Assembly (NCBI GenBank): GCA_039030515.1 | Contig: JBCCEA010000060.1 | Location: forward strand, 1 to 15,216 | DNA: 15,216 nucleotides | Source of the DNA: Myxococcota bacterium | GTDB taxonomy: Bacteria; Myxococcota_A; Polyangia; Polyangiales; Houyiibacteriaceae | Reading direction: 5' to 3' | Part shown: one piece after another, positions 1-15,216 of the stretch | Layout of the letters: each line of letters starts with the position of its first letter | How positions within the stretch are numbered: the first letter of the stretch is position 1 | Position numbers and translations under genes: made by a program | Notes under the pieces: model-generated | Databases searched by the model: none | The model's input: the letters and a program-made list of their open reading frames with translations, nothing else | What the model was told of the DNA's origin: nothing

Positions 1-26
1 CCCACCAATATTCGAAACTTCGTCAT
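1..26 (-). CDS. 5' end of a third cassette paralog (MTKFRILV...), running off the left edge of the window
   Basis: 1-26 is identical to 681-706 and 1367-1392, the first codons of the two complete paralogs; ATG at 26-24. Confidence 0.85.
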
Positions 27-47
27 TACGGCACTCGCTTCTTAGAC

Positions 48-121
48 TTACGGTACCACATAGGCGCCCACGCCCGGACGACTGGGGGGTAGCGGGCGCA
101 GCACTCCGTTTCGGTCGCTTC
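48..121 (-). pseudogene. Duplicated 3' end (last ~24 codons and stop) of the 1449-aa gene
   Basis: Matches 1414-1487 (SDRNGVLRPLPPSRPGVGAYVVP-stop), with TAA in place of TAG. An in-frame TGA lies immediately upstream. Confidence 0.9.
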
Positions 122-142
122 ACTCAAAACTTCAGCGCCACA

Positions 143-706
143 TCACTCAGCCTCTGCCGCATCGAGAGCGCAGTCGTACGAGTCGTTTTTGAGCGCGATT
201 TGGCTGCATTCCTCAGTCGGGTCTGGGGTAAAAGAGACCTGTACGAACCACAGTCGATCGTCTTCCAGCTTTAGCCAAGCCTTTGCCCTAGCGCCGGACA
301 TTGCTCCGGTATAGAAACTCAGGCTGATTACGCCTGAGCAGCCTGTGTCGTCAAGCGTGGCTTCGTGTGCCGCCACAAAGCGATTAAGGTACGTGAACTG
401 AGCCGTTCGTTCGGTAGGTTCACCGATAATGATCCTCTCCCATTCGCTCACCAGCTCGGCTCGATGAGTGTCGCACTCTGCATCAGGAAACCAAGGTTCT
501 TCCAAAACAGACACTCCAAAATGCTCAGGGAGATCGACTACATTATTCGCGCTTCTGTTGCGACAAGACTTCTGATCGTAAAGTTGAAAGTCGATTTCTA
601 GACCACTGAAGTCAATGCAGCGGAATTCAGTTAACCCGCACTCCGCCGCGCTAGAAAACGGCAGCATCGATATGACCACGCCCACCAATATTCGAAACTT
701 CGTCAT
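143..706 (-). CDS. Cys-rich exported hypothetical protein (possible lipoprotein), cassette paralog A, 187 aa
   Basis: Signal-like N-terminus MTKFRILVGVVISMLPFSSAAEC; 7 Cys conserved with paralog B; about 70% identity to B by hand alignment, with many synonymous differences. Confidence 0.85.
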   Translation of the reverse strand: MTKFRILVGVVISMLPFSSAAECGLTEFRCIDFSGLEIDFQLYDQKSCRNRSANNVVDLPEHFGVSVLEEPWFPDAECDTHRAELVSEWERIIIGEPTERTAQFTYLNRFVAAHEATLDDTGCSGVISLSFYTGAMSGARAKAWLKLEDDRLWFVQVSFTPDPTEECSQIALKNDSYDCALDAAEAE

Positions 707-727
707 TACGGCACTCGCTTCTTAGCA

Positions 728-801
728 CTACGGTACCACATAGGCGCCCACGCCCGGAAGACTGGGGGGTAGCGGGCGCAGCACTCCGTTTCGGTCGCTT
801 C
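728..801 (-). pseudogene. Duplicated 3' end (last ~24 codons and stop) of the 1449-aa gene
   Basis: Identical to 1414-1487 except one substitution at 759. Confidence 0.9.
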
Positions 802-822
802 ACTCAAAACTTCAGCGCCACA

Positions 823-1392
823 TCACTCAGCCTCTGCTGCATCGAGGGTGCAGTCGTACGAGTCGTTTTTGAGCACGACGTGGCTGCATTCCTCAGTCGG
901 GTCTGGGGTAAAAGAGACCTGTACGAACCACGGTCGATCCTCTTCTGACTCTAGCCAGGCCTTGGCCTTGGCCTTGACGCCCGGTATTCGCGCGGTTTGA
1001 AACTGAGTGACCAAGACTCCCGAACAACCGATTTCTTCGAGCATGACTTCGTGTGCGGCTACAAAGCGGTCGCGATAGGTGATTTGAGCTGTTCTATCGG
1101 TAGATTCACCGATGATGAGCCCCTCCCACTCGCTCACCAGCTCAGCTCGATGAAGATCGCACTGCTTATCGGGTGACCAAAGTTCATCTGAAACGGACAC
1201 TCGAAAATGCTCGGGTACCTTAACTGCACTATCTAATCCTCTGCGAGGGCAAAACGAAGAAGCGTAGTGTTGAAAGTCGATTTCTAGACCACTGAAGTCA
1301 ATGCAGCGAAACTCATAGAATCCGCACTCCGCCGCGGTAGAAAACGGCAGCATCGATATGACCACGCCCACCAATATTCGAAACTTCGTCAT
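823..1392 (-). CDS. Cys-rich exported hypothetical protein (possible lipoprotein), cassette paralog B, 189 aa
   Basis: Same N-terminus and Cys pattern as paralog A; 2 aa longer, at a GCCTTG micro-repeat near 959-976 (KAKAKA); starts 21 bp after the big gene's stop. Confidence 0.85.
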   Translation of the reverse strand: MTKFRILVGVVISMLPFSTAAECGFYEFRCIDFSGLEIDFQHYASSFCPRRGLDSAVKVPEHFRVSVSDELWSPDKQCDLHRAELVSEWEGLIIGESTDRTAQITYRDRFVAAHEVMLEEIGCSGVLVTQFQTARIPGVKAKAKAWLESEEDRPWFVQVSFTPDPTEECSHVVLKNDSYDCTLDAAEAE

Positions 1393-1413
1393 TACGGCAC
1401 TCGCTTCTTAGCA

Positions 1414-4400
1414 CTACGGTACCACATAGGCGCCCACGCCCGGACGACTGGGGGGTAGCGGGCGCAGCACTCCGTTTCGGTCGCTTCCGATCTCGCCAGC
1501 AGGCCATGGCGGGCTCAGCGGAGCTCCTCCCTGCAGAAGTAGTTGCGTCCCGCTGCTCGTGGCCGGGCTTCCCGTTTGGATCACGTCTCCAGCTGCATCC
1601 AAAACCACTCCAACGCGGCTATCCGGAAACGTTCCGGGATTGTGGATAAGCGCGAGGTTGTCCTGAGCGCTCAGGCTGCCTCCGGTCTGGCAGGTGTAGT
1701 TGCTCGCATCGTTGATCGCAGCCTCCGTGTTTGCCCATCGGCTGAACTCGACTCCCTCCCACTTGCAGAGAACGAGAGGACCGCCGCCCTGCTGCGCACT
1801 GGAGGCATAGTTCGGCGGATAAGAAAAGAGATTGCCGACTACAGACGAAGAAACCAGGGGCGTCAAGGCAAGGCCGTCCAGATGCAGGATGTTGGCGTAG
1901 GGCTCCCGACGTTCGTTCATCCAGTCTGCAAAGGCGAGGAGATTGTTGACCAAGGTAAGAGACTGTATCGACCCTTCGATACGCACGGTGTTGATCGGCA
2001 CGTCTGCCCTCGCAGTGGTGGGCACGAAGTTTCTGCCGGTGACAACGGTAGATTGATAAAGCTGAACAGTCCCCGAGGCTCCACCGTCGATACGGAGGGC
2101 ATCGCCTGCCTGCACGCCTCCCGGAAGGCGGATCACCGAGTTGTCGATAAAGACACTCCCGGCTGCCGCGAGGTCGACTCCGCCGGCATTCAAGGCGTCG
2201 ACGACCCCAACACCTACGCCGTAGGTTCCGCTTAAGGTGCTTCGCGAAACTCTGACCGTGCCGGTGCCCTCGTCGCTCCAGCCAAAGGTGCCTCGAATCG
2301 ACCGGAGCACCTGACCTGAGGTGGAGGCATCGATACCCAAAAGATCGCTATCGGTGAGAATCGCTTCATCGAGATTCGAGGTGAGAAGGGCCGCGTGTTC
2401 AGAATTGGTGGTGGGCAATGCACCTTCAAAAGCGACGAGGGTGGAGTCATGCACCATCAGGGTACCCTCTCGCGCCTGGGTGGCGATGCGACAGAGGCCG
2501 ACTCCTGAAGCGTCCGCGCGTACATGGTTCAGGCGAAGGTCGCTGCGGATGGAGAGCACCGGAGTCACACATTGAAAAGACCGGGACGTGTTCGTCACGA
2601 TCGCCAAATGCTCGAGTCCTACCACCGCGTCCGAGGCCAGCAGTCCCGCCCGGGAGCTTCGCGCCGATGTATTGAAGCGGGGTGTGGTGACCGAAACTAG
2701 GCTGGCGCTGCTGGCGGCATCGAGCTCGAGCGTGGTTTGCAGATCTGGGTTTTGAGCCCAGGAGGCGTCGTGGCCGCCGATCAAGGTCACGGTGCGTGCC
2801 TGTATGGTCAGGGCGGGCTCGGCATACGTTCCGGCCTGGAGATAGACGATGAGCGGCTGGGCGGGATCTGTCGCGCTGAGAGCTGCATGCACCGAAGCGA
2901 ACGGATAGGCCTGGCTTCCCGCCAGGGGATGATCGTCATCGCCAAAGGTGGCTACGTAGACTTCCGGTGCATCAAGCGTCGTCACGGTGACTTGGGCGGA
3001 GGGAAAGCTCGAGAGTTCGCCCGCGCCGTTGACGCTGACGAGTTCAAAGCTGTAGTCGGTGTTTCCGGCGAGACCCACGAGCGACCATCCACTGCTCCCC
3101 TCGGAAACGGCTACCGTGCCCACATCGCGCGTGTCCGGAGCGGTCATTCGGATTCGAATCGCGGTAGCCTCCATCGAATCCCAACTTAGGGTGGCACCTC
3201 CCGGTAGGGGAGCGGCGGTCAAACCCCTGGCGGGTTCAGGGGGTGTCCACAAGAGCAAGGTCGCGGGCTCGCTAAATGCCGCATCACTGCCCGCACCGTT
3301 TTGAGTTCGCGCCTCGAAGCGAAGCTGTCTGTCGAAGGGAAGATCCGTCACGGTCAGGCTTTGTGAGCGTGCATAGGCGATACTTTGGCTGAAGGTGAAA
3401 GAAGCGTCGTCCACGCTTTGTGCCTGCAGCGTGAAACCGGTCGCTGCGGGAGAGAGATCGCTCCACTGCAGCGCGACCCGCGGCAGGTCGCCGGAAACGT
3501 CATGAGCGCTTTGCCCCGAAAATGGAAATGGAGCCGACGGGGTGACCGGACCGGATGCTTGCACGTGGGTGCCGCACATGCCCGAAGGCTCATGAAGGGC
3601 AAAGAGCTCGCAGATGCTCTCGGGGCTTACATCGTGCGCGGCCATGGTTTTGGACATCGCGCGATCGAAGCTGCGGTAGTTCAGCTCGTCGGCATCCCTT
3701 GCAAGGTTGAGGATGATATCGTGCAGTGCCGGCCCGCCGAGGACGACGCGCTCATCCTGAGCGTGCTGGCCATACATCCAGTCGACATCTCGGATGATGT
3801 CCGAGTCGTCTGGATCAAGCGTGAACCGCCAAACGCCGCCGTTGTGAAAGTCGGCGCCGCTGCCGTCGAAAACATCGGTCAAGAGGGTCGCGTAGCGCGC
3901 GATGCGCTCTTCTCGTCGGTCTTCGAGCTGGTTGTCCCGAGTGAAGCGACCTAAGGGGAAGTCTTGAGAATCGCCACCGATGTTGTCCTCCAGGCAGGGC
4001 GCTGAGAGGGGCGAGGCGTCTGCGCGGCAGTAGCTCGACCCGCTCGACCCGACCTGATTCTGGGAGGCCGTAAACTCGAAGTACACGTATCCGCCCGCGG
4101 TTTGGCTCGCGAGAAAGTCTGCCCAGGCCTCGCCGAGCACTCCGGCAGCGCCATCGTCCGGCCCCTGCTGCAGGAGCGAATCGCCCCAGACATCGCCATA
4201 CATGCGGCCGAATGCTCGGCGGCTGTGGTCTGCAAGGAAGGTGCACATGATGTAGTGACCGTATTCGTGGGTTGGCGTCACGCGGCTTCGGGCGCTGTCT
4301 TCCGGGATCACGATATCGACCTCGTCAAAGATCGACGCGAGTCCCGCGGCCGCCGACCATCCACGACCTCGCCCGAAGGAAAGGGTCCCAAACCCGAAAT

Positions 4401-5763
4401 ACCCGAGGCAGGGCGCCACAGCATTGGGAAACACGACGTCCGCGAGTCGACCCGTCCTGACCAGGGCTGTCGGCATACCGCGGGTGAACACCGGGGAACG
4501 CGCCCGAAGGAACCTGGGGCTCTCGTAGTGCACCCGCTCTTGAATGAAGTCTCGGGCGCTCGTCAGCTGGGCGAGCACATTCATGTCGCTTTCGCGGACG
4601 TGCGCATCGATGTGAACGTCGTCGTCGCGGTCGGTGCGGCCGTGAAAAACCGTGATGCGCTTGTCCCAAAGCAAGCCGATTAGATCGGCCGCCTTGTTTT
4701 TCAGCCGGATGTGGACGCGAATGCGTTTGGCCCGAGGCACGTCGAAACGCACAAAACCATTTCGGTCGATGCGCCCCCGATCGAGGCTGACCATGAGGCC
4801 GCTTGCAACGCGAACCTCGGCGCCGTGCGGAATGATGGGCTCGCCCGACCGATCTCCAAGCCAAGCTTGGCGCATCACCTCGTCGGGACGGGTATCGAAA
4901 TCTGGGTCTGTGTTGCGTACGGAAAGACTCAGGGAGAACTTACGGCTGCGGCCGAAGAACTGGCGGACTTCGCTCGAGACCTCGCGGACAAAATTGATGC
5001 CCCGCTGCACGCTTCGACGAATTCGCCTGGCGATGCGGCCACCCAACGCCGCTCGGTACACACCGACAGACGCGTCACCGCGATACGACTCACTGCGGTG
5101 CGACAGGGCATCGCTTGTCGACTCTGCTTCGGCTTCCCCGTCCGGAGCGGGTTCCTCCGCAAAAGCTTCCGTGCCGCCGTACACAAAACCCTGCGCACCC
5201 AGCCAATCGTAGTCGACCGAACCACCCGGCATACGGGCCTCCGGTACGGGCACTTCCTGGAGCAAGATCGCATCGAAGATCGGCTCGCCATCCAACGCTT
5301 CTTGGCGAAAGAGGTTGTAGACCTCTGCCGGGATAAGCGCGAACGCAAAGTCGCCGTACTGAGAACCCGGAAACGTGAATTTTCCGGACTGCTCACCCCA
5401 GCGTTCATGTTCCACCTCAAACAGCGGAAGCGCATCGTAGTGGATTTCAAAAAGGTTGAGCTCTTCGAGATTTTGTCGATCGCGAATCAGGATGAGCACA
5501 TAGTGCAGCGCAGGTCGGCCGTCCTCATCGAGCTCGGTCAGCGCTTCGGTCGTAGACCACTCAAAGGTCTCGACCATGGCCTCGATCTCTTCGGTTTCAA
5601 AAGGAGGCGGAAGTTCCGGCAGGCTCATCGATTCGCCCTCCCCCTCGATATCGACGCGGATCACCTGGGTGTCGCGCTGGTCGCATCCGGTGAGTGCGCT
5701 CCCGAGCATGCCCACCAGCAGTGCTCGCCCGGCAAGCTCCATTGCAGAAAAGGCCCGGCTCAT
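1414..5763 (-). CDS. Large multidomain lipoprotein: HExxH zinc-metallopeptidase-like region, FN3-like repeats, DUF1565-like/right-handed beta-helix, choice-of-anchor-Q-like C-terminus
   Basis: Lipobox-like ALTG-C27; HEYGH at 4269-4255 with downstream GEAWADF; FN3-like LQWSD..., LSWD...GLAGNTDYSFELVSVNGAGE; VYVATFGDD...GSQAYPFASVHAAL...YLQAGTY; C-terminal DRNGVLRP...GVGAY. Domain calls are from motif recognition only. Confidence 0.8.
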   Translation of the reverse strand: MSRAFSAMELAGRALLVGMLGSALTGCDQRDTQVIRVDIEGEGESMSLPELPPPFETEEIEAMVETFEWSTTEALTELDEDGRPALHYVLILIRDRQNLEELNLFEIHYDALPLFEVEHERWGEQSGKFTFPGSQYGDFAFALIPAEVYNLFRQEALDGEPIFDAILLQEVPVPEARMPGGSVDYDWLGAQGFVYGGTEAFAEEPAPDGEAEAESTSDALSHRSESYRGDASVGVYRAALGGRIARRIRRSVQRGINFVREVSSEVRQFFGRSRKFSLSLSVRNTDPDFDTRPDEVMRQAWLGDRSGEPIIPHGAEVRVASGLMVSLDRGRIDRNGFVRFDVPRAKRIRVHIRLKNKAADLIGLLWDKRITVFHGRTDRDDDVHIDAHVRESDMNVLAQLTSARDFIQERVHYESPRFLRARSPVFTRGMPTALVRTGRLADVVFPNAVAPCLGYFGFGTLSFGRGRGWSAAAGLASIFDEVDIVIPEDSARSRVTPTHEYGHYIMCTFLADHSRRAFGRMYGDVWGDSLLQQGPDDGAAGVLGEAWADFLASQTAGGYVYFEFTASQNQVGSSGSSYCRADASPLSAPCLEDNIGGDSQDFPLGRFTRDNQLEDRREERIARYATLLTDVFDGSGADFHNGGVWRFTLDPDDSDIIRDVDWMYGQHAQDERVVLGGPALHDIILNLARDADELNYRSFDRAMSKTMAAHDVSPESICELFALHEPSGMCGTHVQASGPVTPSAPFPFSGQSAHDVSGDLPRVALQWSDLSPAATGFTLQAQSVDDASFTFSQSIAYARSQSLTVTDLPFDRQLRFEARTQNGAGSDAAFSEPATLLLWTPPEPARGLTAAPLPGGATLSWDSMEATAIRIRMTAPDTRDVGTVAVSEGSSGWSLVGLAGNTDYSFELVSVNGAGELSSFPSAQVTVTTLDAPEVYVATFGDDDHPLAGSQAYPFASVHAALSATDPAQPLIVYLQAGTYAEPALTIQARTVTLIGGHDASWAQNPDLQTTLELDAASSASLVSVTTPRFNTSARSSRAGLLASDAVVGLEHLAIVTNTSRSFQCVTPVLSIRSDLRLNHVRADASGVGLCRIATQAREGTLMVHDSTLVAFEGALPTTNSEHAALLTSNLDEAILTDSDLLGIDASTSGQVLRSIRGTFGWSDEGTGTVRVSRSTLSGTYGVGVGVVDALNAGGVDLAAAGSVFIDNSVIRLPGGVQAGDALRIDGGASGTVQLYQSTVVTGRNFVPTTARADVPINTVRIEGSIQSLTLVNNLLAFADWMNERREPYANILHLDGLALTPLVSSSVVGNLFSYPPNYASSAQQGGGPLVLCKWEGVEFSRWANTEAAINDASNYTCQTGGSLSAQDNLALIHNPGTFPDSRVGVVLDAAGDVIQTGSPATSSGTQLLLQGGAPLSPPWPAGEIGSDRNGVLRPLPPSRPGVGAYVVP

Positions 5764-7013
5764 GGGGAAACCTCTTCGGTTTCTTGCGTGTCATCTTCGC
5801 TCGGTGGTGCGGGCTGCAGCAGAACGCGAGAGTCTTGACCGTTGCGTGACGCAACGCGGAGGAAGAGGCTTCCCTGAGTCTCGCCGGATTCGCATGAGAG
5901 GGTGAAAAGGACCGTCTCGCCAAAGGGCAATTCGACCTCCGCTGCTTCTGCGCCATCGGACAGGAACACCCTAGAAAAGGAGGGGCTCGAGAGGATGGCC
6001 TCCATACCGCAGGCCATGGTCACAGAACCGTGCGGCGCAAGACCCTCTGCAGGCATCGACCCGTCGGCCGGAGGCGGCTGTTCGCTGAGCTCATCGTAGG
6101 ACCTGACAAGCAGCAAATCTTGGTCGCCAGTCCATTCGATCTCGTCGCGAAGCCACACGTACTCGAAATCGTCTGTGCCGCGATCGACCGCGACCGTGGA
6201 TCCGTGGTCGGGCATCGACGCCAAAACGGTCGTTCGAAAGGCGGTGGAAAATGCAGGCCAGTCTTCTCTGAAGCCGGCAGGTAGATACACGACCTCTGCA
6301 TCTACCTCACGGTCGATATCAAAGGTAGGCCTTGTCCAAACGAGCGTGCCCGGACCGTCAGGCAACCCCCGCAAGAGGAGCGGGCCTTGTTCTCCCGGCT
6401 CCACCACCGCAAGCGCCAGACGGGGCTCTCCCCATGCAGGTTCGAAGAGAAGCAATGAAGGCTGGTCGGTTTGGTCTTTGGGCGTCGACTCCTTGTCGAC
6501 GGGCCACGTCACCTGGATTTCCCGGCTCCCGTTTGTGAAGAAAAGCTCGCCGATACGGCTTCGGTCGTCCCCGTCGGCCTGGACGAGCGCACGCACCACA
6601 TCACCACCTACAGAGGAGACTTTGCTTGCCTGCTGGCGCAGAGCCGAAATCGAGAGCGTCCCCGGACAGGGCTCCTCGATCAAAAACGGATCGGATGCGG
6701 TAGTGTTGTCAAAGGCGAGCATCACCATGAGCTGGCTTACGGCATGCCTTGGCCACACGTCGTAATCGACGGCCAGAGACTCTCGTTGGCTACCCGCTAC
6801 TAGAAAGGTATGCGTGTGTCCGCGATCGGTGAGTGCGAGCTCAGGTTCGTCGAGATCCTGGACCGAGCAGGGCCGAGGCGGCGCATCGTAGGTATCGGGA
6901 ATTGTCGAATTATTTTCGGTATCGCTCGATGAAGCGCCGTCACCGTCCGGGCATCCAGATAGAGCCAGTGCGAGTGCGCTCGTCAGAACTCGGAGAGATT
7001 TGGATGTATTCAT
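5760..7013 (-). CDS. Hypothetical lipoprotein, 417 aa
   Basis: Lipobox-like LALALSG-C21 followed by a Ser/Asp linker; its stop overlaps the next start (ATGA at 5763-5760). Confidence 0.8.
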   Translation of the reverse strand: MNTSKSLRVLTSALALALSGCPDGDGASSSDTENNSTIPDTYDAPPRPCSVQDLDEPELALTDRGHTHTFLVAGSQRESLAVDYDVWPRHAVSQLMVMLAFDNTTASDPFLIEEPCPGTLSISALRQQASKVSSVGGDVVRALVQADGDDRSRIGELFFTNGSREIQVTWPVDKESTPKDQTDQPSLLLFEPAWGEPRLALAVVEPGEQGPLLLRGLPDGPGTLVWTRPTFDIDREVDAEVVYLPAGFREDWPAFSTAFRTTVLASMPDHGSTVAVDRGTDDFEYVWLRDEIEWTGDQDLLLVRSYDELSEQPPPADGSMPAEGLAPHGSVTMACGMEAILSSPSFSRVFLSDGAEAAEVELPFGETVLFTLSCESGETQGSLFLRVASRNGQDSRVLLQPAPPSEDDTQETEEVSP

Positions 7014-7281
7014 CTACTTCACCGTGATGTCTCTGCCTGTACTTTGTACGTGCATGCCGGAACGCTTCTCCCTTGGACCGCTTGGATAAGTTCTGTGAGG
7101 GTCGCGAACTTACAGAGAATTTGCGCTTTCAGTGTTAAAAGATAGCACTGCACTCCGCAGCCTCAAGCGGAGGCGCACCAAGGAGCGTTCGATCTACGGA
7201 CATCAGCTTCTCGCACGCCGCAACCGAGCTTAAAGAGGCAACCGAGGCTTCCTTGCGCACGGTCTGAACACCACCCGCACA

Positions 7282-7378
7282 CCGTACCCGGTACGGCTTG
7301 TCCAAGACATAGCCTGGCCATATTGGGCGCAGATGAGATACGCCGTACCCAGTACGGCTTGCCCAAGCAGTACGGCTT
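7282..7378. promoter_or_regulatory. Repeated palindromic motif in the divergent intergenic region (candidate operator)
   Basis: CCGTACCCGGTACGGCTTGTCCAAG (7282-7306), CCGTACCCAGTACGGCTTGCCCAAG (7343-7367) and a partial CAGTACGGCTT (7368-7378). Confidence 0.45.
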
Positions 7379-7554
7379 TTCCTAGTCGGTACCTGCTCTG
7401 GAAATCTGACCAGGTGCGGTTGGGGCTGAACGATTTTTTTCAGCAGCGGGAGCATGGCGGCGACGGGTGAGCCTATAAAACCAATCAAGCCGCGGGAAAT
7501 TGGAAAACCGACCGACAGCAGACAACCTTTTGCTACTGTGCCCGATACTACTTG

Positions 7555-7567: not shown

Positions 7568-8536
7568 GTGTCGATAAGCGACGAGCTACTCAAACTGTAC
7601 CGTCAGATGTTCGTGATTCGCCGCTTTGAGGAGGAGGCGGCAAGGGCCTACGCGCAGGGAAAGATCGGCGGGTTCTTGCATCTCTACATTGGACAAGAAT
7701 CGGTGGCGGTGGGCGCCTGTGCCGCGATTGAGAAAGACGACTACGTGATGACCACGTATCGAGACCACGGACTGGCCCTCGCCCGAGGTATGCCTCCGGG
7801 AGTGGCGATGGCGGAGCTTCACGGCAAAGATGCCGGATGCTCTCGGGGACTCGGTGGCTCGATGCACTTCTTTGACCCGGAGCGAAACATGCTCGGGGGC
7901 TGGGCGATCGTGGGCGGGCATCTCGCCGTTGGTGCGGGAGTGGCGTTTCGCTCGAAGTATCTCGATGAGGCCTCGGTAACGCTTTGCTTCTTTGGTGAAG
8001 GCGCCACCAACATCGGCGGTTTCCACGAGGGACTCAGCCTGGCGGGTCTGTGGAAGCTGCCCATCGTGTTCATCTGTGAAAACAACGAGTACGCGATGGG
8101 CACGCCGATGTCGCGAACCTCTCCTCTCGACGACCTTTCGGTCAAAGCTGCCGGCTATGGGATGCTTGGCGACTCGATCGACGGGCACGACGTTCAAGTC
8201 GTCCGAGACCGGATTCGCTCGGCGGTTGGTCACGCCCGTCGAGGAGACGGACCGACGTTCTTAGAGGTAAAAACCTATCGCTTCCGGGGGCATTCGATGA
8301 GCGACCCTGGCAAGTACCGCTCCCGCGCAGAGCTTGAGGAGCAAAAGAGGCGCGACCCACTCAAGGTGACCCGCCTGCAGCTGGCGGACGCCGGAATCGA
8401 CGAGTCCGCTTTGGTTGCGCTTGAAGAGAGCGCTGAGCAGGAGATTGCAGATTCGGTATCCTTCGCCGAGTCGGCAGAACCGGCACGTGAAGAGGTCATG
8501 CGGGCCAGCGTCTACGCCCCATCGGAGCAACGGTAG
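7568..8536 (+). CDS. pdhA: Pyruvate dehydrogenase E1 alpha subunit
   Basis: IRRFEE, GKIGGFLHLYIGQE, YRDHG, GGSMH, GEGA...ICENN TPP motif, TYRFRGHSMSDP. Confidence 0.96.
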   Translation: MSISDELLKLYRQMFVIRRFEEEAARAYAQGKIGGFLHLYIGQESVAVGACAAIEKDDYVMTTYRDHGLALARGMPPGVAMAELHGKDAGCSRGLGGSMHFFDPERNMLGGWAIVGGHLAVGAGVAFRSKYLDEASVTLCFFGEGATNIGGFHEGLSLAGLWKLPIVFICENNEYAMGTPMSRTSPLDDLSVKAAGYGMLGDSIDGHDVQVVRDRIRSAVGHARRGDGPTFLEVKTYRFRGHSMSDPGKYRSRAELEEQKRRDPLKVTRLQLADAGIDESALVALEESAEQEIADSVSFAESAEPAREEVMRASVYAPSEQR

Positions 8537-8538
8537 TT

Positions 8539-9525
8539 ATGCGCACAATTCGATACAGAGAAGCGATTCGAGAAGCCCTACTCGAAGAAATGGATCGAGA
8601 CTCCCGAGTCTTTTTGATGGGTGAGGAGGTCGGGCACTACCAGGGAGCGTATAAGGTTTCTGAGGGGCTGCTGGCGCGCTTTGGCGAGTCGCGGGTGATC
8701 GACACCCCGATCGCTGAATCGGGTTTTGCTGGCATCGGCGTAGGCGCAGCGATGACCGGACTTCGACCCGTGATCGAGTTCATGACCTGGAATTTCTCCT
8801 TCGTCGCGCTCGATCAGATTGTGAGCAACGCTGCCAAGGTCTACCAAATGAGCGGAGGAAAGATCTCCGTACCGATCGTGTTCCGTGGCCCAAACGGGGC
8901 GGCAAAGCAGGTGGGTTCCCAACACAGTCACTCGGTGGAACCGTTTTATGCTTCGGTGCCGGGACTCTGGGTCTGCGCACCCGCCACACCCCGTGATGCT
9001 AAGGGGCTGCTGAAAACCGCGATCCGAGACGCCAATCCGGTCGTATTTCTCGAAGGCGAAACTCTGTACAACGTGTCCGGCGAGGTGCCCGACGAAGGCG
9101 ACGAAGAGCTGATTCCCTTCGGAGAGGCACGTACCGCTCGGGAAGGAACAGACTGCACCGTTGTCGTTTGGGGCCGTCCCTATTACGAGACGATGAAGGC
9201 GGTCGAAGCGATTTCAACGGCACTGGAGATCGAATGCGAGGTCATCGACCCGAGGACCGTTCGACCCTTGGATACCGCGAGCATCGTGCAGAGCGTGAAG
9301 AAAACCAATCGATGCGTGGTGGTCCACGAGCATTGGCCGATGGGAGGCCCGGGAGCTGAAATCGTCGACACGGTGCAGCGGGAGGCTTTTGACTTTCTCG
9401 ATGCCCCGGTGGAGCGCGTCGCATCTTTGGACATACCGATGCCGTACGCATCCCATTTGGAAGACACGGTATTGCCCACCGAATCGCGCATTCGGTCGGC
9501 CATCGAGAAGGTTTGCTATGCGTGA
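8539..9525 (+). CDS. pdhB: Pyruvate dehydrogenase E1 beta subunit
   Basis: MGEEVGHYQGAYKVSEGL, DTPIAESGFAG, EFMTWNF, FRGPNG, QHSH. Confidence 0.96.
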   Translation: MRTIRYREAIREALLEEMDRDSRVFLMGEEVGHYQGAYKVSEGLLARFGESRVIDTPIAESGFAGIGVGAAMTGLRPVIEFMTWNFSFVALDQIVSNAAKVYQMSGGKISVPIVFRGPNGAAKQVGSQHSHSVEPFYASVPGLWVCAPATPRDAKGLLKTAIRDANPVVFLEGETLYNVSGEVPDEGDEELIPFGEARTAREGTDCTVVVWGRPYYETMKAVEAISTALEIECEVIDPRTVRPLDTASIVQSVKKTNRCVVVHEHWPMGGPGAEIVDTVQREAFDFLDAPVERVASLDIPMPYASHLEDTVLPTESRIRSAIEKVCYA

Positions 9526-9636
9526 TCGGTCGAATGGATGTGGTCGATCCGCGGCGAGCAGCAGGCCGATTTTTACGCAGTTCAGAACAGATACTGCACG
9601 TACTGCGTCAGTCGGTCCGCGACTCGATCGGCCCGA

Positions 9637-9680
9637 TCACGGTAGTCGGTTTGATAGTGGTCACGATAGTCAGTTTGATA
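9637..9680. repeat. 24-bp imperfect tandem duplication in the pdhB-pdhC spacer
   Basis: TCACGGTAGTCGGTTTGATAGTGG followed by TCACGATAGTCAGTTTGATA. Confidence 0.6.
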
Positions 9681-9729
9681 ATAAGGGCCCGATTCATCCG
9701 CTGATCGGCAGCGGAACACGGAGTGCATA

Positions 9730-11097
9730 ATGGCGAAGATCGTTGGGCTGCCCAAACTATCCCCGACCATGGAAGAAGGAACCCTTTCCCGATGGACCGT
9801 TCAGGAGGGGGACAGCGTCGATGTAGACGACCTGCTTGCCGAGGTAGAAACCGATAAGGCGGTCATGGAGTTTCGATCCTTTGATCGAGGGGTTCTGCTG
9901 AAAATACTGGTGCCGGAGGGCGAAATAGTGGCCCTTGATGCGCCAGTCGCGATCATCGGCACCAAAGGCGAAGACATCTCGGCCTTGCTGCAGCAGGTGG
10001 CGGGCGGACCAGCTACACCATCCACTGCTTCGTCCCCAAAATCCGCCTCGCCCGGCACCCTAGACTCCAGCGGCGCCCTAGACTCAAAAGCGAGCCCCCC
10101 GGACTCCACTGCAGCCTCTGGTTCCTCAGAAGCGAGGGCTTCCAGTATATCCGCAGCTGGAGACAAAGCTCTGAGCGATCCTGGCGACGGACAAAGCAAG
10201 GGCTCCGATCGGATTCTTGCCTCACCGTTGGTTCGTCGATTGGCTCGGGAGAGAGATGTCGATCTGGCGTCCATCTCGGGAACAGGCCCGGGAGGCAGGA
10301 TCATCAAGCGCGATCTTGAGGGTTATGTCGCCACGCCATCATCCAGCGAATCATCGTCATCGCACATTTCATCGTCACCTCACGCGGCCAGCATCGCATC
10401 CAACCTCGTGGATTCTGCTCCGAGGGTAGAGAAGCTGAGCTCGATGCGGCGCACGATCGCCCGACGGCTGACCGAGTCCAAGCAGCAGGTTCCTCATTTC
10501 TACCTCACGATCGAAGTCGATGCGGAGCCGCTCTGGCAAACACGCAAACAGATCAATGCGTCTCTCGATGGTGAAAAGGTTTCGCTCAACGACCTAGTCA
10601 TCAAGGCTTGTGCAGTGGCCCTACGCCGCGTACCGGCCTGCAACGCGTCTTTTGCCGGTGACGCGATTCACTACCATCCAAACGTGGATATTTCGGTTGC
10701 TGTTGCAGTACCGGAAGGACTGATGACGCCAGTAGTGCGAAACGCAGATACCAAGGGCGCGCTTGCCATTTCTCGCGAGGTCAGGGATCTGGCGGCGAGG
10801 GCAAAAGAGCGCCGACTGCTACCTGAAGAGATGACGAACGGCACGTTTTCCATCTCGAACCTGGGGATGTTCGGTATCGACGCGTTCAGTGCAGTGATCA
10901 ATCCCCCCGAGGGAGCCATCCTCGCGGTCGGCGCTGCCCGGGAAGTTCCCGTGGTCGTCGATGGCGCACTCAAGCCGGGGCGACGTATGTCGATGACCCT
11001 CAGCTGCGACCACCGAGTGATCGACGGCGCGATCGGCGCTGGCTATCTCAAGGTATTGCGGGGGCTTTTGGAGTATCCGCTCAACATGATTCTATAG
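9730..11097 (+). CDS. pdhC: Pyruvate dehydrogenase E2, dihydrolipoamide acetyltransferase (one lipoyl domain)
   Basis: LSPTMEEG...EVETDKA lipoyl motif, ASPLVRRLARE...GTGPGGRI subunit-binding domain, SCDHRVIDG catalytic motif; GGAG upstream. Confidence 0.96.
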   Translation: MAKIVGLPKLSPTMEEGTLSRWTVQEGDSVDVDDLLAEVETDKAVMEFRSFDRGVLLKILVPEGEIVALDAPVAIIGTKGEDISALLQQVAGGPATPSTASSPKSASPGTLDSSGALDSKASPPDSTAASGSSEARASSISAAGDKALSDPGDGQSKGSDRILASPLVRRLARERDVDLASISGTGPGGRIIKRDLEGYVATPSSSESSSSHISSSPHAASIASNLVDSAPRVEKLSSMRRTIARRLTESKQQVPHFYLTIEVDAEPLWQTRKQINASLDGEKVSLNDLVIKACAVALRRVPACNASFAGDAIHYHPNVDISVAVAVPEGLMTPVVRNADTKGALAISREVRDLAARAKERRLLPEEMTNGTFSISNLGMFGIDAFSAVINPPEGAILAVGAAREVPVVVDGALKPGRRMSMTLSCDHRVIDGAIGAGYLKVLRGLLEYPLNMIL

Positions 11098-11546
11098 GGC
11101 CGCGGGCGTTCAGGCACGCCATAGCGCCGCTTACCTTCGATGCTCCTCGCTCAACGTACTCAAAGTACGCCTTCGCTCCTGCGCTTCGAGGGCGCTGGCT
11201 CTCTGACGCCCCTGAACGCCCGCGCCGTGATGACAAACGCACCCCATAGCGCCGCTTACCTTCGATGCTCCTCGCTCAACGTACTCAAAGTACGCCTTCG
11301 CTCCTGCGCTCCAGCACGCCTCGCTAGGCCTGAACGCCTGCTTTCCTCCCATGCTCGACGTTCGAAGTATCGTCAATACTCCTTCACGTCTGCGCGTGCG
11401 GGGCGCTGGGCGTTCAAACCCATCGAGACGCGCTGGTCGAGGGCGCTGGCTCTCTGACGCCCCTGAACGCCCGCGCCGTGATGACAAACGCACCCCATAG
11501 CGCCGCTTTGCTCGTCGTCGTCAGGTACCCACGACCGCGGGGGGTT
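11098..11546. repeat. Cluster of ~125-bp palindromic REP/REPIN- or MITE-like elements between convergent genes
   Basis: Inverted arms CGCGGGCGTTCAGG (11101-11114) and CCTGAACGCCCGCG (11211-11224); 125-bp period (11119 vs 11244); central CGTAC-TCAAA-GTACG hairpin; partial copy near 11509-11530. Confidence 0.9.
11311..11436. mobile_element. 126-bp hairpin element inserted inside another copy of the family
   Basis: Copy 1 reads CTCCTGCGCT|TCGAGGGCGCTGG. Copy 2 has 126 bp at that junction, bounded by CCAGCACGCCTCG...CGAGACGCGCTGG (11/13 inverted match). Confidence 0.8.
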
Positions 11547-11584: not shown

Positions 11585-12991
11585 CTAGCACATGCCGTGA
11601 AACTTACGATCAGGGTTAGAGAAGACCTTTGAAGGGTTGAGAATGCCTTTTGGATCGAAGACCTGCTTGATCTGTTTCTGATAACTGATCAGCGCCGGAG
11701 ACTGTTCGAGGTGTAAGTAAGGCGCCTTGAGCAAGCCCAATCCGTGTTCGCCACTCAGCGTTCCTCCAAGCTCCAGCGTGCGGCGAAAGAGTCCTTCGAT
11801 GGCTCGGTCCACCCGAGGGCGCTCGTCAGGGCTGTTCCAAAGAAAGTTGACGTGCAGATTGCCGTCTCCGGCGTGACCATACGTGGGGATCAGAATCTCC
11901 TCACGCTCTGCTGTTTCGCGGCAGTACCGCAGGAGATCTCCGATGCGTGGACGGGGGACGACCACGTCTTCTGAGAGCTTGAATGTGGCTTTTCGACGCA
12001 TCGAGTAGCTGAGCTGGCGTCGCGCGCTCCAGAGTCGTTCCCGTTCATTCGAGGTCGCGGCAACGAGAACATCGAGGGCGCCGCAATCGAGCAGTGCATT
12101 GCCGAGTCGTTCGACTTCGCCTTCAAGAAGCGTCTGACTGCCGTCAAGCTCCAGCAACAACATCGCCGTGGCGTCCTTCGGGATATCGAGACCCGCCTGA
12201 GGACGCACGAGTTCCAAAGCCACCGTATCGAGAAGCTCCACACATCGAGGCATGAGGCGCTCGCGAATCGCGGTGTTGACCACACTCTCCACGCCGACGT
12301 CCCCTTTGACAAAGACCATCATGGTCGCGATCGCTTCGGGCTTCGGAATCAGCTTGAGGCGTGCTTCGGTGACGATCCCCAAAGTGCCTTCGCTGCCGAC
12401 CATGAGCGCCGTGAGGTCGTATCCGGTCACGCCCTTGCGAGTTCGCTTACCCAACTGGAGTACGGTTCCGTCACCGGTCACCACGGTCATGCCGAGAACG
12501 TATTCGCGGGTGACCCCGTACTTGAGCGCTCGGGGACCGGCCGCATTGGCGCCGATATTGCCCCCGATAGCGCAAGTGTCTGCAGAGTTGGGATCAGGTG
12601 GATAGAACAGCCCTTCCGCTTCCACCGCGCGATGAACCAGGCCTGTAGGCACGCCCGGCTCCACCAAAGCAGTCATGTCGTGCCGGTCCACTTCACGTAT
12701 TTCCTGCATTCGTTCGAAGCTGAGCACCAGCCCGCCTTGCTCGGGCACAGATCCTCCGACGCGGCTGGTACCGCCACCTCGCGGGGTGATCGGAATACCG
12801 TAGTCGTTGGCCGCCTGAACCACCGCCGCAACATCTGCGGTAGAGGCGACCCGAACCACCGCGACCGGTTCTACCGGCGTAGCTTCGCTTTCATCTTTCG
12901 CGTAAGACTGCAACTGGTCGCGGTCGGTGATCAGAGCATCCGTACCGAGAGCACGGTCGATAGCGATTAGGGCGGCGTCGGTGGATCCCAT
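11585..12991 (-). CDS. FAD-binding oxidoreductase, GlcD/D-lactate dehydrogenase-like (2-hydroxyacid oxidase family)
   Basis: PRGGGTS, YPPDPNS, IGGNIGANAAGP, LKYGVTREYV, GSEGTLG, GHAGDGNLH, SGEHGLG. Confidence 0.92.
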   Translation of the reverse strand: MGSTDAALIAIDRALGTDALITDRDQLQSYAKDESEATPVEPVAVVRVASTADVAAVVQAANDYGIPITPRGGGTSRVGGSVPEQGGLVLSFERMQEIREVDRHDMTALVEPGVPTGLVHRAVEAEGLFYPPDPNSADTCAIGGNIGANAAGPRALKYGVTREYVLGMTVVTGDGTVLQLGKRTRKGVTGYDLTALMVGSEGTLGIVTEARLKLIPKPEAIATMMVFVKGDVGVESVVNTAIRERLMPRCVELLDTVALELVRPQAGLDIPKDATAMLLLELDGSQTLLEGEVERLGNALLDCGALDVLVAATSNERERLWSARRQLSYSMRRKATFKLSEDVVVPRPRIGDLLRYCRETAEREEILIPTYGHAGDGNLHVNFLWNSPDERPRVDRAIEGLFRRTLELGGTLSGEHGLGLLKAPYLHLEQSPALISYQKQIKQVFDPKGILNPSKVFSNPDRKFHGMC

Positions 12992-13348: not shown

Positions 13349-13819
13349 TCAGGCTATACCGTCGCGTCGATCCGATCTTCTGGCGATGGGTGGGACGAGC
13401 GGCTGCTCGAACGAGCTCTGCATGCGAACACCGAGCGCGTCTAGGATCCGGCTTGCGCGGTCCACGGTGATGTTGTGGTACTCGTTCCGCTCGTCCCGAG
13501 ACACCTGCGATTCGTGGACGCCGAGCCGGGAGGCGAGCTCGCGCTGCGTGAGACCGAGGGCGATGCGCAACGCGACAAGCGCATGTCCAAGTCCGTGCAG
13601 GTTCATCATGTCTGCGATGTCGCCACGCTTGAGCCGCTCGTAGCTCTCGACCTCTTCGCCGAGCTGGTCGTGGAACGAGCGCAGCGGGTCGATGGCCCGC
13701 TTCACCTCGTCGGGGCCGAGGCCCATGCCTTCCAGGTGTGCCTTGTGGTCGTTCAGGCGAGCGCGCTCTTCTTGGAGCCGCCGCACCGCCTCCTGATACT
13801 CGCTCTCGTTGCGGATCAT
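13349..13819 (-). CDS. XRE-family HTH protein, HigA-like putative antitoxin, 156 aa
   Basis: Start MIRNESEYQEA at 13819, with AAGGAGA upstream and an ATGA overlap with the upstream gene; HTH LRIALGLTQRELASRLGVHESQVSRDE. Confidence 0.85.
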   Translation of the reverse strand: MIRNESEYQEAVRRLQEERARLNDHKAHLEGMGLGPDEVKRAIDPLRSFHDQLGEEVESYERLKRGDIADMMNLHGLGHALVALRIALGLTQRELASRLGVHESQVSRDERNEYHNITVDRASRILDALGVRMQSSFEQPLVPPIARRSDRRDGIA

Positions 13820-14370
13820 GGCTGGTCTCCTTTCTTGATCTTCACGGTTCCTTTGGGCCGTCCGTCGCAGCGTGAGAGGCGAAATGCCGACGAGAACTCG
13901 AGCTCGTTTCCATACTTGTCGCGGATGCCCGAGACCTGGCCGTAGTGGGGGTACATTTCGACTCGATAGTGGCGCCACATCGGCAACTGCTTCTTCGGGT
14001 AGCCGCGATACGGACGTCGCGATGCCGGGTCCCAAGTCCAGACCTTGTGGGGGTCGCGCAAGTTGAGAGCACTTTGCAGTCGACCGCTGGCCAATTCCAG
14101 GAGGTCGCAGACGAAGTACCCGTCGATGTCGTTCGGATGCTCCTTGTCCTCCACGAAGGAACCGTCAAGGAAGATCTCCGTGACCCCGACCTGCCAGAGC
14201 TGTTGGACCAGCACCTCGACGTTGTTCACGAGCTTGCTGCGCCACCCGCGATCCCAGTTCAGGTAGCCTCCCGCGGGACCCTGCACGAGGATCGACGCGC
14301 GTAGCTCGGCCAGCGTCAGCTCGTAGTCGCCGGCAGGCAGGCACCCGTCCGCGTCAAAGTCAGGCAACAT
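13816..14370 (-). CDS. Nucleotidyltransferase-like protein (DUF6932-like), putative toxin
   Basis: MLPDFDADGCLPAGDY N-terminus and the LDGSFVEDKEHPNDID pol-beta-type GS...DxD motif; coupled to the HTH gene. Confidence 0.75.
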   Translation of the reverse strand: MLPDFDADGCLPAGDYELTLAELRASILVQGPAGGYLNWDRGWRSKLVNNVEVLVQQLWQVGVTEIFLDGSFVEDKEHPNDIDGYFVCDLLELASGRLQSALNLRDPHKVWTWDPASRRPYRGYPKKQLPMWRHYRVEMYPHYGQVSGIRDKYGNELEFSSAFRLSRCDGRPKGTVKIKKGDQP

Positions 14371-14667: not shown

Positions 14668-14731
14668 AGCGGCGCTATGGCGTGCCTCTGTCGCACCCCC
14701 CCGCGGCCGTCCAGGCCTAGCGAGGCGTGCT
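14668..14731 (-). repeat. Mosaic of element-arm fragments
   Basis: 14668-14687 is the reverse complement of 11112-11131; 14695-14710 resembles the reverse complement of 11531-11546 (14/16); 14712-14731 is the reverse complement of 11313-11332. Confidence 0.75.
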
Positions 14732-15109
14732 CCAGCGGGCCTATGTCGGCCCAAACAGCTGCTTGCCTCACATGCTCGTCCCTCAACGTACTCAAAGTAC
14801 GCCTTCGCTCCTGCGCTTCCGGGGCGCTGGCTGTTTGAGCCAACCTAGGCCCGCTGGGGGGTAGTGGTCACTAGGCCTGAACGCCTGCTTGCCTCACATG
14901 CCCGTCGCTCAACGTACTCAAAGTACGCCTTCACTCCTGTGCTTCCGGGGCGCTCGCTGTTTCGTCCAACCTAGGCCCGCTGGGGGATGGTGGTCACTAG
15001 GCCTGAACGCCTGCTTGCCTCCCATGCTCGTCCCTTGAAGTAGCGAAACTACTCCTTCACTCCTGCGCTTCCGGGGCGCTGGCTGTTTGAGCCAACCTAG
15101 GCCCGCTGG
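14732..15109 (+). repeat. Three tandem 126-bp elements (14732-14857, 14858-14983, 14984-15109)
   Basis: Each ends in CCAACCTAGGCCCGCTGG. The first has matching arms CCAGCGGGCCTA...TAGGCCCGCTGG. All share the core ATGCTCGT..-hairpin-CCTTC(G/A)CTCCTG with minor variation. Confidence 0.92.
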
Positions 15110-15216
15110 GCCGAGGAGGAGGGTACTTTTAGGTACCTGACGACAACGAGCATCTTCGGTCAGCCGCTGTTTGGGCCGACACGCGCAGCGGGCCTAGGTT
15201 GGTTCAAACAGCCAGC
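15110..15216 (-). repeat. Two inverted partial copies of the same element family
   Basis: The reverse complement of 15110-15182 reads TGTCGGCCCAAACAGC...ATGCTCGTTGTCGTCAGGTACCTAAAAGTACC. 15186-15216 is the reverse complement of the right arm and runs off the window. Confidence 0.8.

Follow-up and report, generated by a model that had tools for sequence, protein, structure and literature searches.

The window analysed here, a stretch of 15,216 nucleotides that makes up the whole contig JBCCEA010000060.1 of a Myxococcota bacterium (assembly GCA_039030515.1; contig C60 of genome G000), carries at its left end a tandem array of non-identical copies of a small gene, located behind a gene for a predicted surface zinc peptidase. 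We propose, at a probability of roughly 0.5, that the small genes encode inhibitors of this peptidase and that the last 74 bp of the peptidase gene, which recur in front of each further copy, represent the scar of one duplication. The DNA mechanism (duplication, then recombination) is held with high confidence, while the inhibitor role is put forward at about even odds. The gene order (lipoprotein, predicted peptidase, small lipoprotein array) is operon-like and comprises the following features:

5760..7013, minus strand: predicted lipoprotein of 417 amino acids (LSGC at Cys21), no family; the gene overlaps the start codon of the big gene
1414..5763, minus strand: big gene, predicted lipoprotein of 1449 amino acids (LTGC at Cys27) with peptidase core, FN3 domains and a C-terminal region that may form a beta-helix
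3559..5658, minus strand: conserved core (residues 36-735), probably made up of a propeptide and a fungalysin/thermolysin-like zinc peptidase domain, according to AlphaFold2 (AF2) model and fold matches
4255..4269, minus strand: HEYGH zinc-binding motif (residues 499-503), invariant in 8/8 homologues
4117..4131, minus strand: E545-x-x-x-D549, third zinc ligand motif of gluzincins, by conservation in 63 sequences
1414..1487, minus strand: final 74 bp of the big gene, from which the junction tails derive
1393..1413, minus strand: 21-nt gap between big gene and small gene 1
823..1392, minus strand: small gene copy 1 (189 amino acids), predicted lipoprotein with eight-stranded beta model and seven conserved Cys
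802..822, minus strand: 21-nt linker after the stop codon
728..801, minus strand: tail copy 1, 73/74 bp identical to the end of the big gene
143..706, minus strand: small gene copy 2 (187 amino acids)
48..121, minus strand: tail copy 2, 73/74 bp identical, stop codon TAA
1..26, minus strand: first bases of a further small gene, truncated by the contig end; the array goes on at 23068-21661 of contig C52 of the same genome

As described in the first-pass annotation of the window, nucleotides 1487-1414 recur at 801-728 and 121-48 (minus strand), each tail is followed by a 21-nt gap and the ATG of a paralogous small gene, blocks 27-142 and 707-822 are identical except at 4 of 116 positions, and the proteins of copies 1 and 2 are 70 % identical (132/189 positions). 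Each tail copy is preceded by a 21-nt linker, which follows the stop codon of the previous gene and is present in this genome only at the junctions. The conserved tract exceeds the non-coding block: 1-292 and 681-972 are 93 % alike, i.e., over ~290 bp that take in both gene ends and the signal peptide. The array runs off the start of the window, a contig end; extending it leftwards, a check proposed in that annotation, led to contig C52 (21661-23068), the end of which holds two further full copies and a fifth cut after ~21 codons. The ends of C60 and C52 fit an array unit with one base missing. The array comprises at least four full copies plus the truncated fifth. All four junctions contain the last 74 bp of the big gene with the same breakpoint and 0-3 differences within the aligned stretch, and chance is excluded as an explanation of this likeness (0/300 shuffles reached the score at any of the four junctions). 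The right boundary of the array is a truncation within a unit (C52, 21661-21818), the last copy stopping after the signal peptide region. Scanning positions 1-1700 of the window for promoters and terminators yielded no sites.

The copies are functional mosaics under purifying selection. Unit 3 is 93-97 % alike to unit 2 in alignment columns 201-380, and 95-98 % alike to unit 1 in columns 361-540. Informative sites of the four copies lie in blocks (40 of 51 neighbours alike), an arrangement reached by none of 20000 permutations. Synonymous divergence between whole copies amounts to 0.29-0.50 and climbs to as much as 1.0 midway along units 1 and 2, differences at the junction are limited to 0-4 %, and the ratio of non-synonymous to synonymous divergence (dN/dS) is 0.23-0.44 in all six copy pairs. 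Identity and synonymous divergence are thus non-uniform along the units, as the initial idea of a shared block acting as recombination handle would predict; the junction is being homogenised and the copies are recombinant, but crossovers are not confined to that block and occurred inside the coding sequence as well. A clean recombinant is also seen in the related locus L043 (12140-13943), where the middle copy matches copy 1 in its 3' half and copy 3 in its 5' half. In the lineage of genome G012 (P0036-P0043, P0005, P0013-P0015, P0049), relatives differ at 21-25 of 193 residues in the first copy, at 4-6 in the second and at 8-15 in the third, and the peptidase of one relative is identical over 1406 residues; these sequences are not phased to one strain.

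Four DNA runs (X1-X4) from one marine study hold the locus; no RNA dataset is among its listed holders. Run X2, possibly not independent of the assembly, matches the big gene without difference over 1623-6000 and contains the truncated right end as well as pieces that depart from unit 1 at 9 and at 17 positions, as the two C52 copies should. Because the copies differ and X2 holds the expected pieces, an assembly collapse, which had been considered as an alternative, fails to account for the junctions. The summed contig depth of the array in X2 is several times that of the big gene, a value that gives no copy number and was not used. In X1, X2 and X3 a more divergent small-gene variant is present, the two test motifs of which occur nowhere in the assembly, and other read pieces match none of the four assembled copies. 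More variants therefore exist, either in the gap between C60 and C52 or in co-occurring strains; the variant pieces differ among the four runs, and the short contigs give neither order nor count.

Eleven arrays were compared, i.e., the present one and those of the related loci L031, L035, L043, L060, L061, L062, L064, L077, L080 and L094. A tail is clear in three of them (74 bp here, 39 identical bp in L035, ~50 diverged bp in L077, where the tails keep the reading frame of the peptidase gene), borderline in L031 (27 bp, p 0.057, yet readable as NPGVGAF) and absent in seven. Since the tail is absent in 7/11 arrays and its length varies by lineage, it appears to be a duplication breakpoint and not a dedicated cassette site; the original notion of the tail as a cassette device finds no support in the form proposed, such arrays not requiring it. 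On the simplest reading, a breakpoint in the end of the upstream gene was reached separately in several lineages and copied by unequal crossing-over. No specific report of a tail from the upstream gene within every unit emerged from literature searches. In a quick tree the copies group by genome with support of 97-100 (this genome, L031, L035, L043, L062), and L080 and L094 share two older copy types; the arrays arose separately in several lineages. The ATG of the small gene overlaps the stop codon of the big gene in L010/L031, L022/L032, L043 and L077. Because of this overlap the ribosome site of the small gene must lie in the tail in these lineages, and a duplicate needs the tail to be translated.

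The array may accordingly be pictured as follows: (i) a single illegitimate duplication, starting within the end of the peptidase gene, would have copied tail, gap, small gene and linker, (ii) unequal crossing-over and gene conversion between the conserved blocks would have multiplied and shuffled the units and would keep the junctions alike, and (iii) the tail would have been retained because it holds the translation start region of the small gene. It follows from the sequence that a homologous exchange between the true end of the gene and a tail would leave the peptidase gene complete, a point already made in the first-pass annotation.

The big protein contains a core of ~700 residues common to 80 related loci, with flanking domains that vary widely. 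We read this core as a new gluzincin (M4/M36-like) family and predict it to be a peptidase. Its AF2 model (predicted local distance difference test score, pLDDT, 85; predicted template modelling score 0.90) resembles M36 fungalysin (Z 16.0, root-mean-square deviation 4.5, 275 aligned), thermolysin (M4; Z 14.0, root-mean-square deviation 4.0, 248 aligned) and LasB (Z 12.5). The structure search used the 700-residue core whole, not by domain, and the matches cover residues 241-700 of the core at 9-12 % identity to M36/M4. HEYGH is located within a helix of the model and was found in all eight homologues that had been collected without the motif pattern; its conservation in the set of 63 sequences is circular, because HEYGH was the retrieval pattern, and the eight-sequence set together with E545/D549 was used instead. 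E545 and D549, which lie outside the retrieval patterns, are each kept in 62/63 sequences, and the ExxxD motif is positioned on a helix in the model. Fold and HExxH plus ExxxD ligands are thus shared with fungalysin and thermolysin, whereas the lipoprotein anchor, a different propeptide and variable accessory domains set the present protein apart. It also differs in Pfam: none of the 63 cores has an M4 or M36 match at E 0.1, one weak M43 match being the sole Pfam peptidase match, and the core corresponds to no Pfam or NCBIfam family and to no peptidase among PDB sequences. A feature match in the ESM Atlas to a Myxococcota cluster, 14 % of whose members carry Mycolysin_M, is a lead only. In addition to the FN3 domains, the big protein contains a C-terminal region with weak DUF1565 matches in 2/8 homologues; motifs in this region, which we take to be those of a beta-helix, suggest such a structure.

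Among related strains the peptidase varies within a restricted part. The allele P0035 differs at 14 of 806 residues, six of which fall into 610-658 of the catalytic domain, and the listed read variants from X1 and X4 cluster in the same part, silent changes included. The strain differences are concentrated at 3791-4144 of the window (C-terminal half of the catalytic domain), and the adjoining parts are nearly invariant. Because silent changes cluster there too, this variant-rich tract may have been imported.

The small protein is predicted to be a beta-barrel lipoprotein. A profile search of 1.84 billion representatives gave eight matches, and iteration on fetched loci widened the family; the iterated profile can drift, and two antisense matches in L110 were ignored. 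In its own genome, the best match outside the array has an E-value of 0.008 among 35512 frames. Seven cysteines recur throughout the family (57-61 of 61 sequences for each), an odd count that would fit one lipidated Cys plus three disulfides; Cys23 is present in 59/61 members, preceded by G, A or S in 43/61. No Pfam or NCBIfam family was found for the small protein, the ESM Atlas search was without usable match, none of the 61 members matches an inhibitor family in Pfam, and PDB sequences gave no match. Variable sites among the four copies are commoner outside the predicted strands (47/100) than within them (17/66). In L077 (10775-13973), three copies occur in which the barrel domain is joined via a Gly/Ser linker to a Cys-rich C-terminal domain.

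The two gene families are linked across myxobacteria. Of 57 loci that extend 700 nt or more beyond the peptidase gene, 34 have the small gene directly behind it, irrespective of the domains on either side of the core. For this tally, loci with less than 700 nt downstream were dropped together with the duplicates L068, L095 and L103 and with L110 (no peptidase frame on the expected strand); the near-duplicate pair L087/L089 was retained, as were two or more loci (L066, L075) whose peptidase frames are broken. Because the small gene stays behind the peptidase gene across differing N- and C-terminal domain sets, the core would be the partner of the small protein. Among 301 genomes of the order, 35 have a small-gene match, 30 a core match and 17 both, counts in which kin are not independent and which were obtained with profiles built partly from the same genomes. 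In 18 of 29 pairs, core and small protein agree in their nearest neighbour (Mantel rho 0.48), the small protein diverging faster than the core. Of the 80 loci L031-L110, 15 (two duplicates included) encode a homologue of the 417-residue lipoprotein upstream of the peptidase gene. The protein of a close relative is labelled Myxococcota, and the labels of related loci are mostly of the Polyangiales type.

The best reading of this combination is a new peptidase-inhibitor pair working like the potempins of Tannerella and expanded like the esaG/tipC immunity arrays. The likeness to immunity arrays noted at the outset is apt, given that the big gene resembles a peptidase gene and the small gene one for its partner. 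Copy 1 would restrain the cell's own peptidase, and further copies would widen protection to variant peptidases of related strains. The fold and zinc ligands of the core, the linkage and shared nearest neighbours of the two families, the position of variable sites outside the predicted strands and the strain differences in the catalytic domain count in favour of this reading. In the potempin/KLIKK-peptidase pairs of Tannerella forsythia, a small lipoprotein gene adjoins a secreted-peptidase gene, as a gene for a predicted lipoprotein adjoins that of a predicted peptidase here; PotE, an eight-stranded barrel lipoprotein, inhibits the thermolysin-type M4 peptidase forsilysin encoded by the adjacent gene (PMC9890683), a pairing of folds that is predicted from models in the present case. 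According to the same source, potempins have 98-132 residues and are encoded upstream, one per peptidase (PMC9890683), whereas the proteins considered here have ~165 residues and six further cysteines, are usually encoded downstream, form arrays and match no PDB chain in sequence. A further parallel is offered by the I38 inhibitors Inh/AprI and by Omp19, eight-stranded calycin-type barrels that protect against secreted metallopeptidases (serralysins); in the present proteins the barrel likeness is predicted, and while I38 proteins block metzincins by a free N-terminus, the N-terminal Cys is here predicted to be lipidated and the enzyme is gluzincin-like (PMC9486555). No I38, staphostatin or potempin chain (PotE included) is among the listed fold matches of the small protein, which does not exclude them.

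With respect to array formation, the esaG, tipC and lpl arrays of Staphylococcus and Streptococcus are the closest counterparts: their paralogues are non-identical and lie in tandem behind a cognate gene, gene ends and spacers hold conserved blocks, the genes are mosaics shuffled via these blocks, and copies are gained and lost by homologous recombination (PMC9484751). The upstream gene of esaG/tipC encodes a type VII-secreted toxin, whereas that of the present array encodes a predicted lipid-anchored peptidase, and a copy of the toxin-gene end in the spacers is not reported in the consulted portion of that account (PMC9484751). The myxobacterial SitAI cassettes likewise combine a polymorphic lipoprotein with a linked partner gene, yet the C-terminal domains of SitA are nucleases, moved by outer membrane exchange, and not a predicted peptidase (PMC5562445). 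The variable C-terminal toxin domain of polymorphic toxin-immunity systems, with orphan toxin domains in the array, has no counterpart here: the enzyme domain is the conserved N-terminal core, and the tails span 12-24 codons. The array process is already known, the peptidase-partner pair is undescribed, and no literature was found on either protein family.

A wider version of the inhibitor proposal is a polymorphic protease-inhibitor conflict system, which we regard as rather doubtful. The surface thermolysin-like peptidase would harm surface proteins of neighbours, its catalytic domain would vary by strain, inhibitor arrays and orphans would counter non-self variants, and the tail would let any copy recombine into the first, translationally coupled position.

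Several observations weigh against an inhibitor. In this lineage Cys23 is preceded by E or D, an atypical lipobox; the eight-strand beta model is of moderate quality (pLDDT 68), and its best fold matches are generic (avidin, lipocalin and PliC-type barrels) and weak (Z <=5.8). No small gene is detectable behind the peptidase gene in 23 of the 57 loci, with no replacement evident, and 16 of 20 fetched small-gene loci, mostly chosen for that, have no full core in the fetched stretch, although orphan small genes would also fit orphan inhibitors. Furthermore, the dN/dS values do not point to positive selection, linkage by itself would lead neighbours to co-diverge, and in L064 (5845-7715) three diverged copies are located upstream of the peptidase gene, after the upstream lipoprotein gene.

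Under a second reading, with the DNA mechanism unchanged, the small lipoprotein would not inhibit: it may be a partner of another kind or a surface protein that varies (candidates are an aid in folding or anchoring, an adaptor for specificity, an adhesin, or a target of phages or grazers), and its diversity would have causes other than peptidase inhibition. This possibility is entertained tentatively. Small genes often lack a peptidase core nearby and stand beside other genes, many peptidase genes lack a small gene, the barrel is a generic calycin-like fold, and the staphylococcal lpl lipoprotein arrays change copy number by the same recombination (PMC9484751). On the other hand, the small gene stays behind the peptidase gene across very different domain sets, and small barrel proteins encoded beside peptidases are known inhibitors, which speaks for inhibition.

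Sequential displacement, in which the downstream units are older or foreign alleles left by incoming peptidase-plus-partner segments and the tails are ends of other peptidase alleles, is considered unlikely. The model has been described for the immunity arrays of the Vibrio type VI secretion system and for Rhs orphan modules, where, as here, partner genes accumulate behind an active gene, 3' pieces of which may remain (PMC5361080). It is favoured by the tail at junction 1 of L031, which ends in NPGVGAFIVP-stop, a family-type ending that the resident gene lacks, by a ratio of non-synonymous to synonymous changes per site (pN/pS) of 0.41 at this junction and at junction 2 of L077, by the silence in the frame of the big gene of four of five distinct tail changes in this genome, and by the peptidase tract rich in silent and non-silent changes in related strains. 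Conversely, the pN/pS values of the other tails are 1.05 and 1.80, nothing being significant at 12-24 codons per tail, and the reads add another tail change that reads as non-silent (position 1438). Vibrio arrays mix alleles or families from other strains and retain pieces of a toxin domain, whereas the present copies cluster by genome, the pattern assigned to duplication in that work, and their tail corresponds to 24 codons of a non-catalytic end (PMC5361080). One breakpoint is common to all four junctions, which points to a single founding event. Displacement and duplication can coexist within one species.

Near-neutral or dosage-driven tandem duplication, yielding variants without distinct specificities, appears improbable: dN/dS is below 1 in all whole-gene pairs and loop variation is expected from relaxed constraint alone, but the copies are intact despite their mid-region synonymous divergence, and 11 loci from several lineages have arrays. 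An integron- or shufflon-like system dedicated to site-specific cassette exchange, with the 74-bp tail as recombination site, can practically be set aside, since, apart from the identical breakpoint in all four junctions, it is contradicted by crossovers within genes, by tails that vary in length and sequence by lineage or are absent, by junction folding no better than that of shuffles (z -0.6, no notable hairpin), and by the lack of tyrosine recombinases (PF00589) on C60 and C52, all five matches of the genome (85 % complete; serine and other recombinase families not searched) being on other contigs.

Between the lipoprotein operon and the adjacent dehydrogenase genes, direct repeats (28 nt x2, 18 nt x3) are located at 7279-7385, a single genomic locus. 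The three genes at 7568-11097 (plus strand) presumably encode pyruvate dehydrogenase E1 alpha, E1 beta and E2, and the gene at 11585-12991 (minus strand) presumably a flavin adenine dinucleotide-linked oxidase. At 13349-14370 (minus strand) a DUF6932 gene is followed by an HTH_3 gene, a layout reminiscent of a nucleotidyltransferase-HTH (helix-turn-helix) toxin-antitoxin pair. Intergenic repeats resembling repetitive extragenic palindromes or bacterial interspersed mosaic elements (~126-nt units with inverted arms) occupy 11100-11530 and 14668-15216; the 126-nt unit has 161 matches on 45 contigs, a 72-nt unit 17 matches on 12 contigs. In G012, an RNA-repair cluster, presumably RtcA, RtcB and RtcR (L010, 4286-8226), lies a few kb downstream of the array.

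Should the small proteins prove to inhibit the peptidase, they would form a new inhibitor family for thermolysin-like enzymes, and a case in which a protease inhibitor has undergone expansion and shuffling in the manner of an immunity gene. Both partners are available as natural variants, rendering specificity directly testable. Inhibition, if true, would suggest protease-based competition among myxobacteria.

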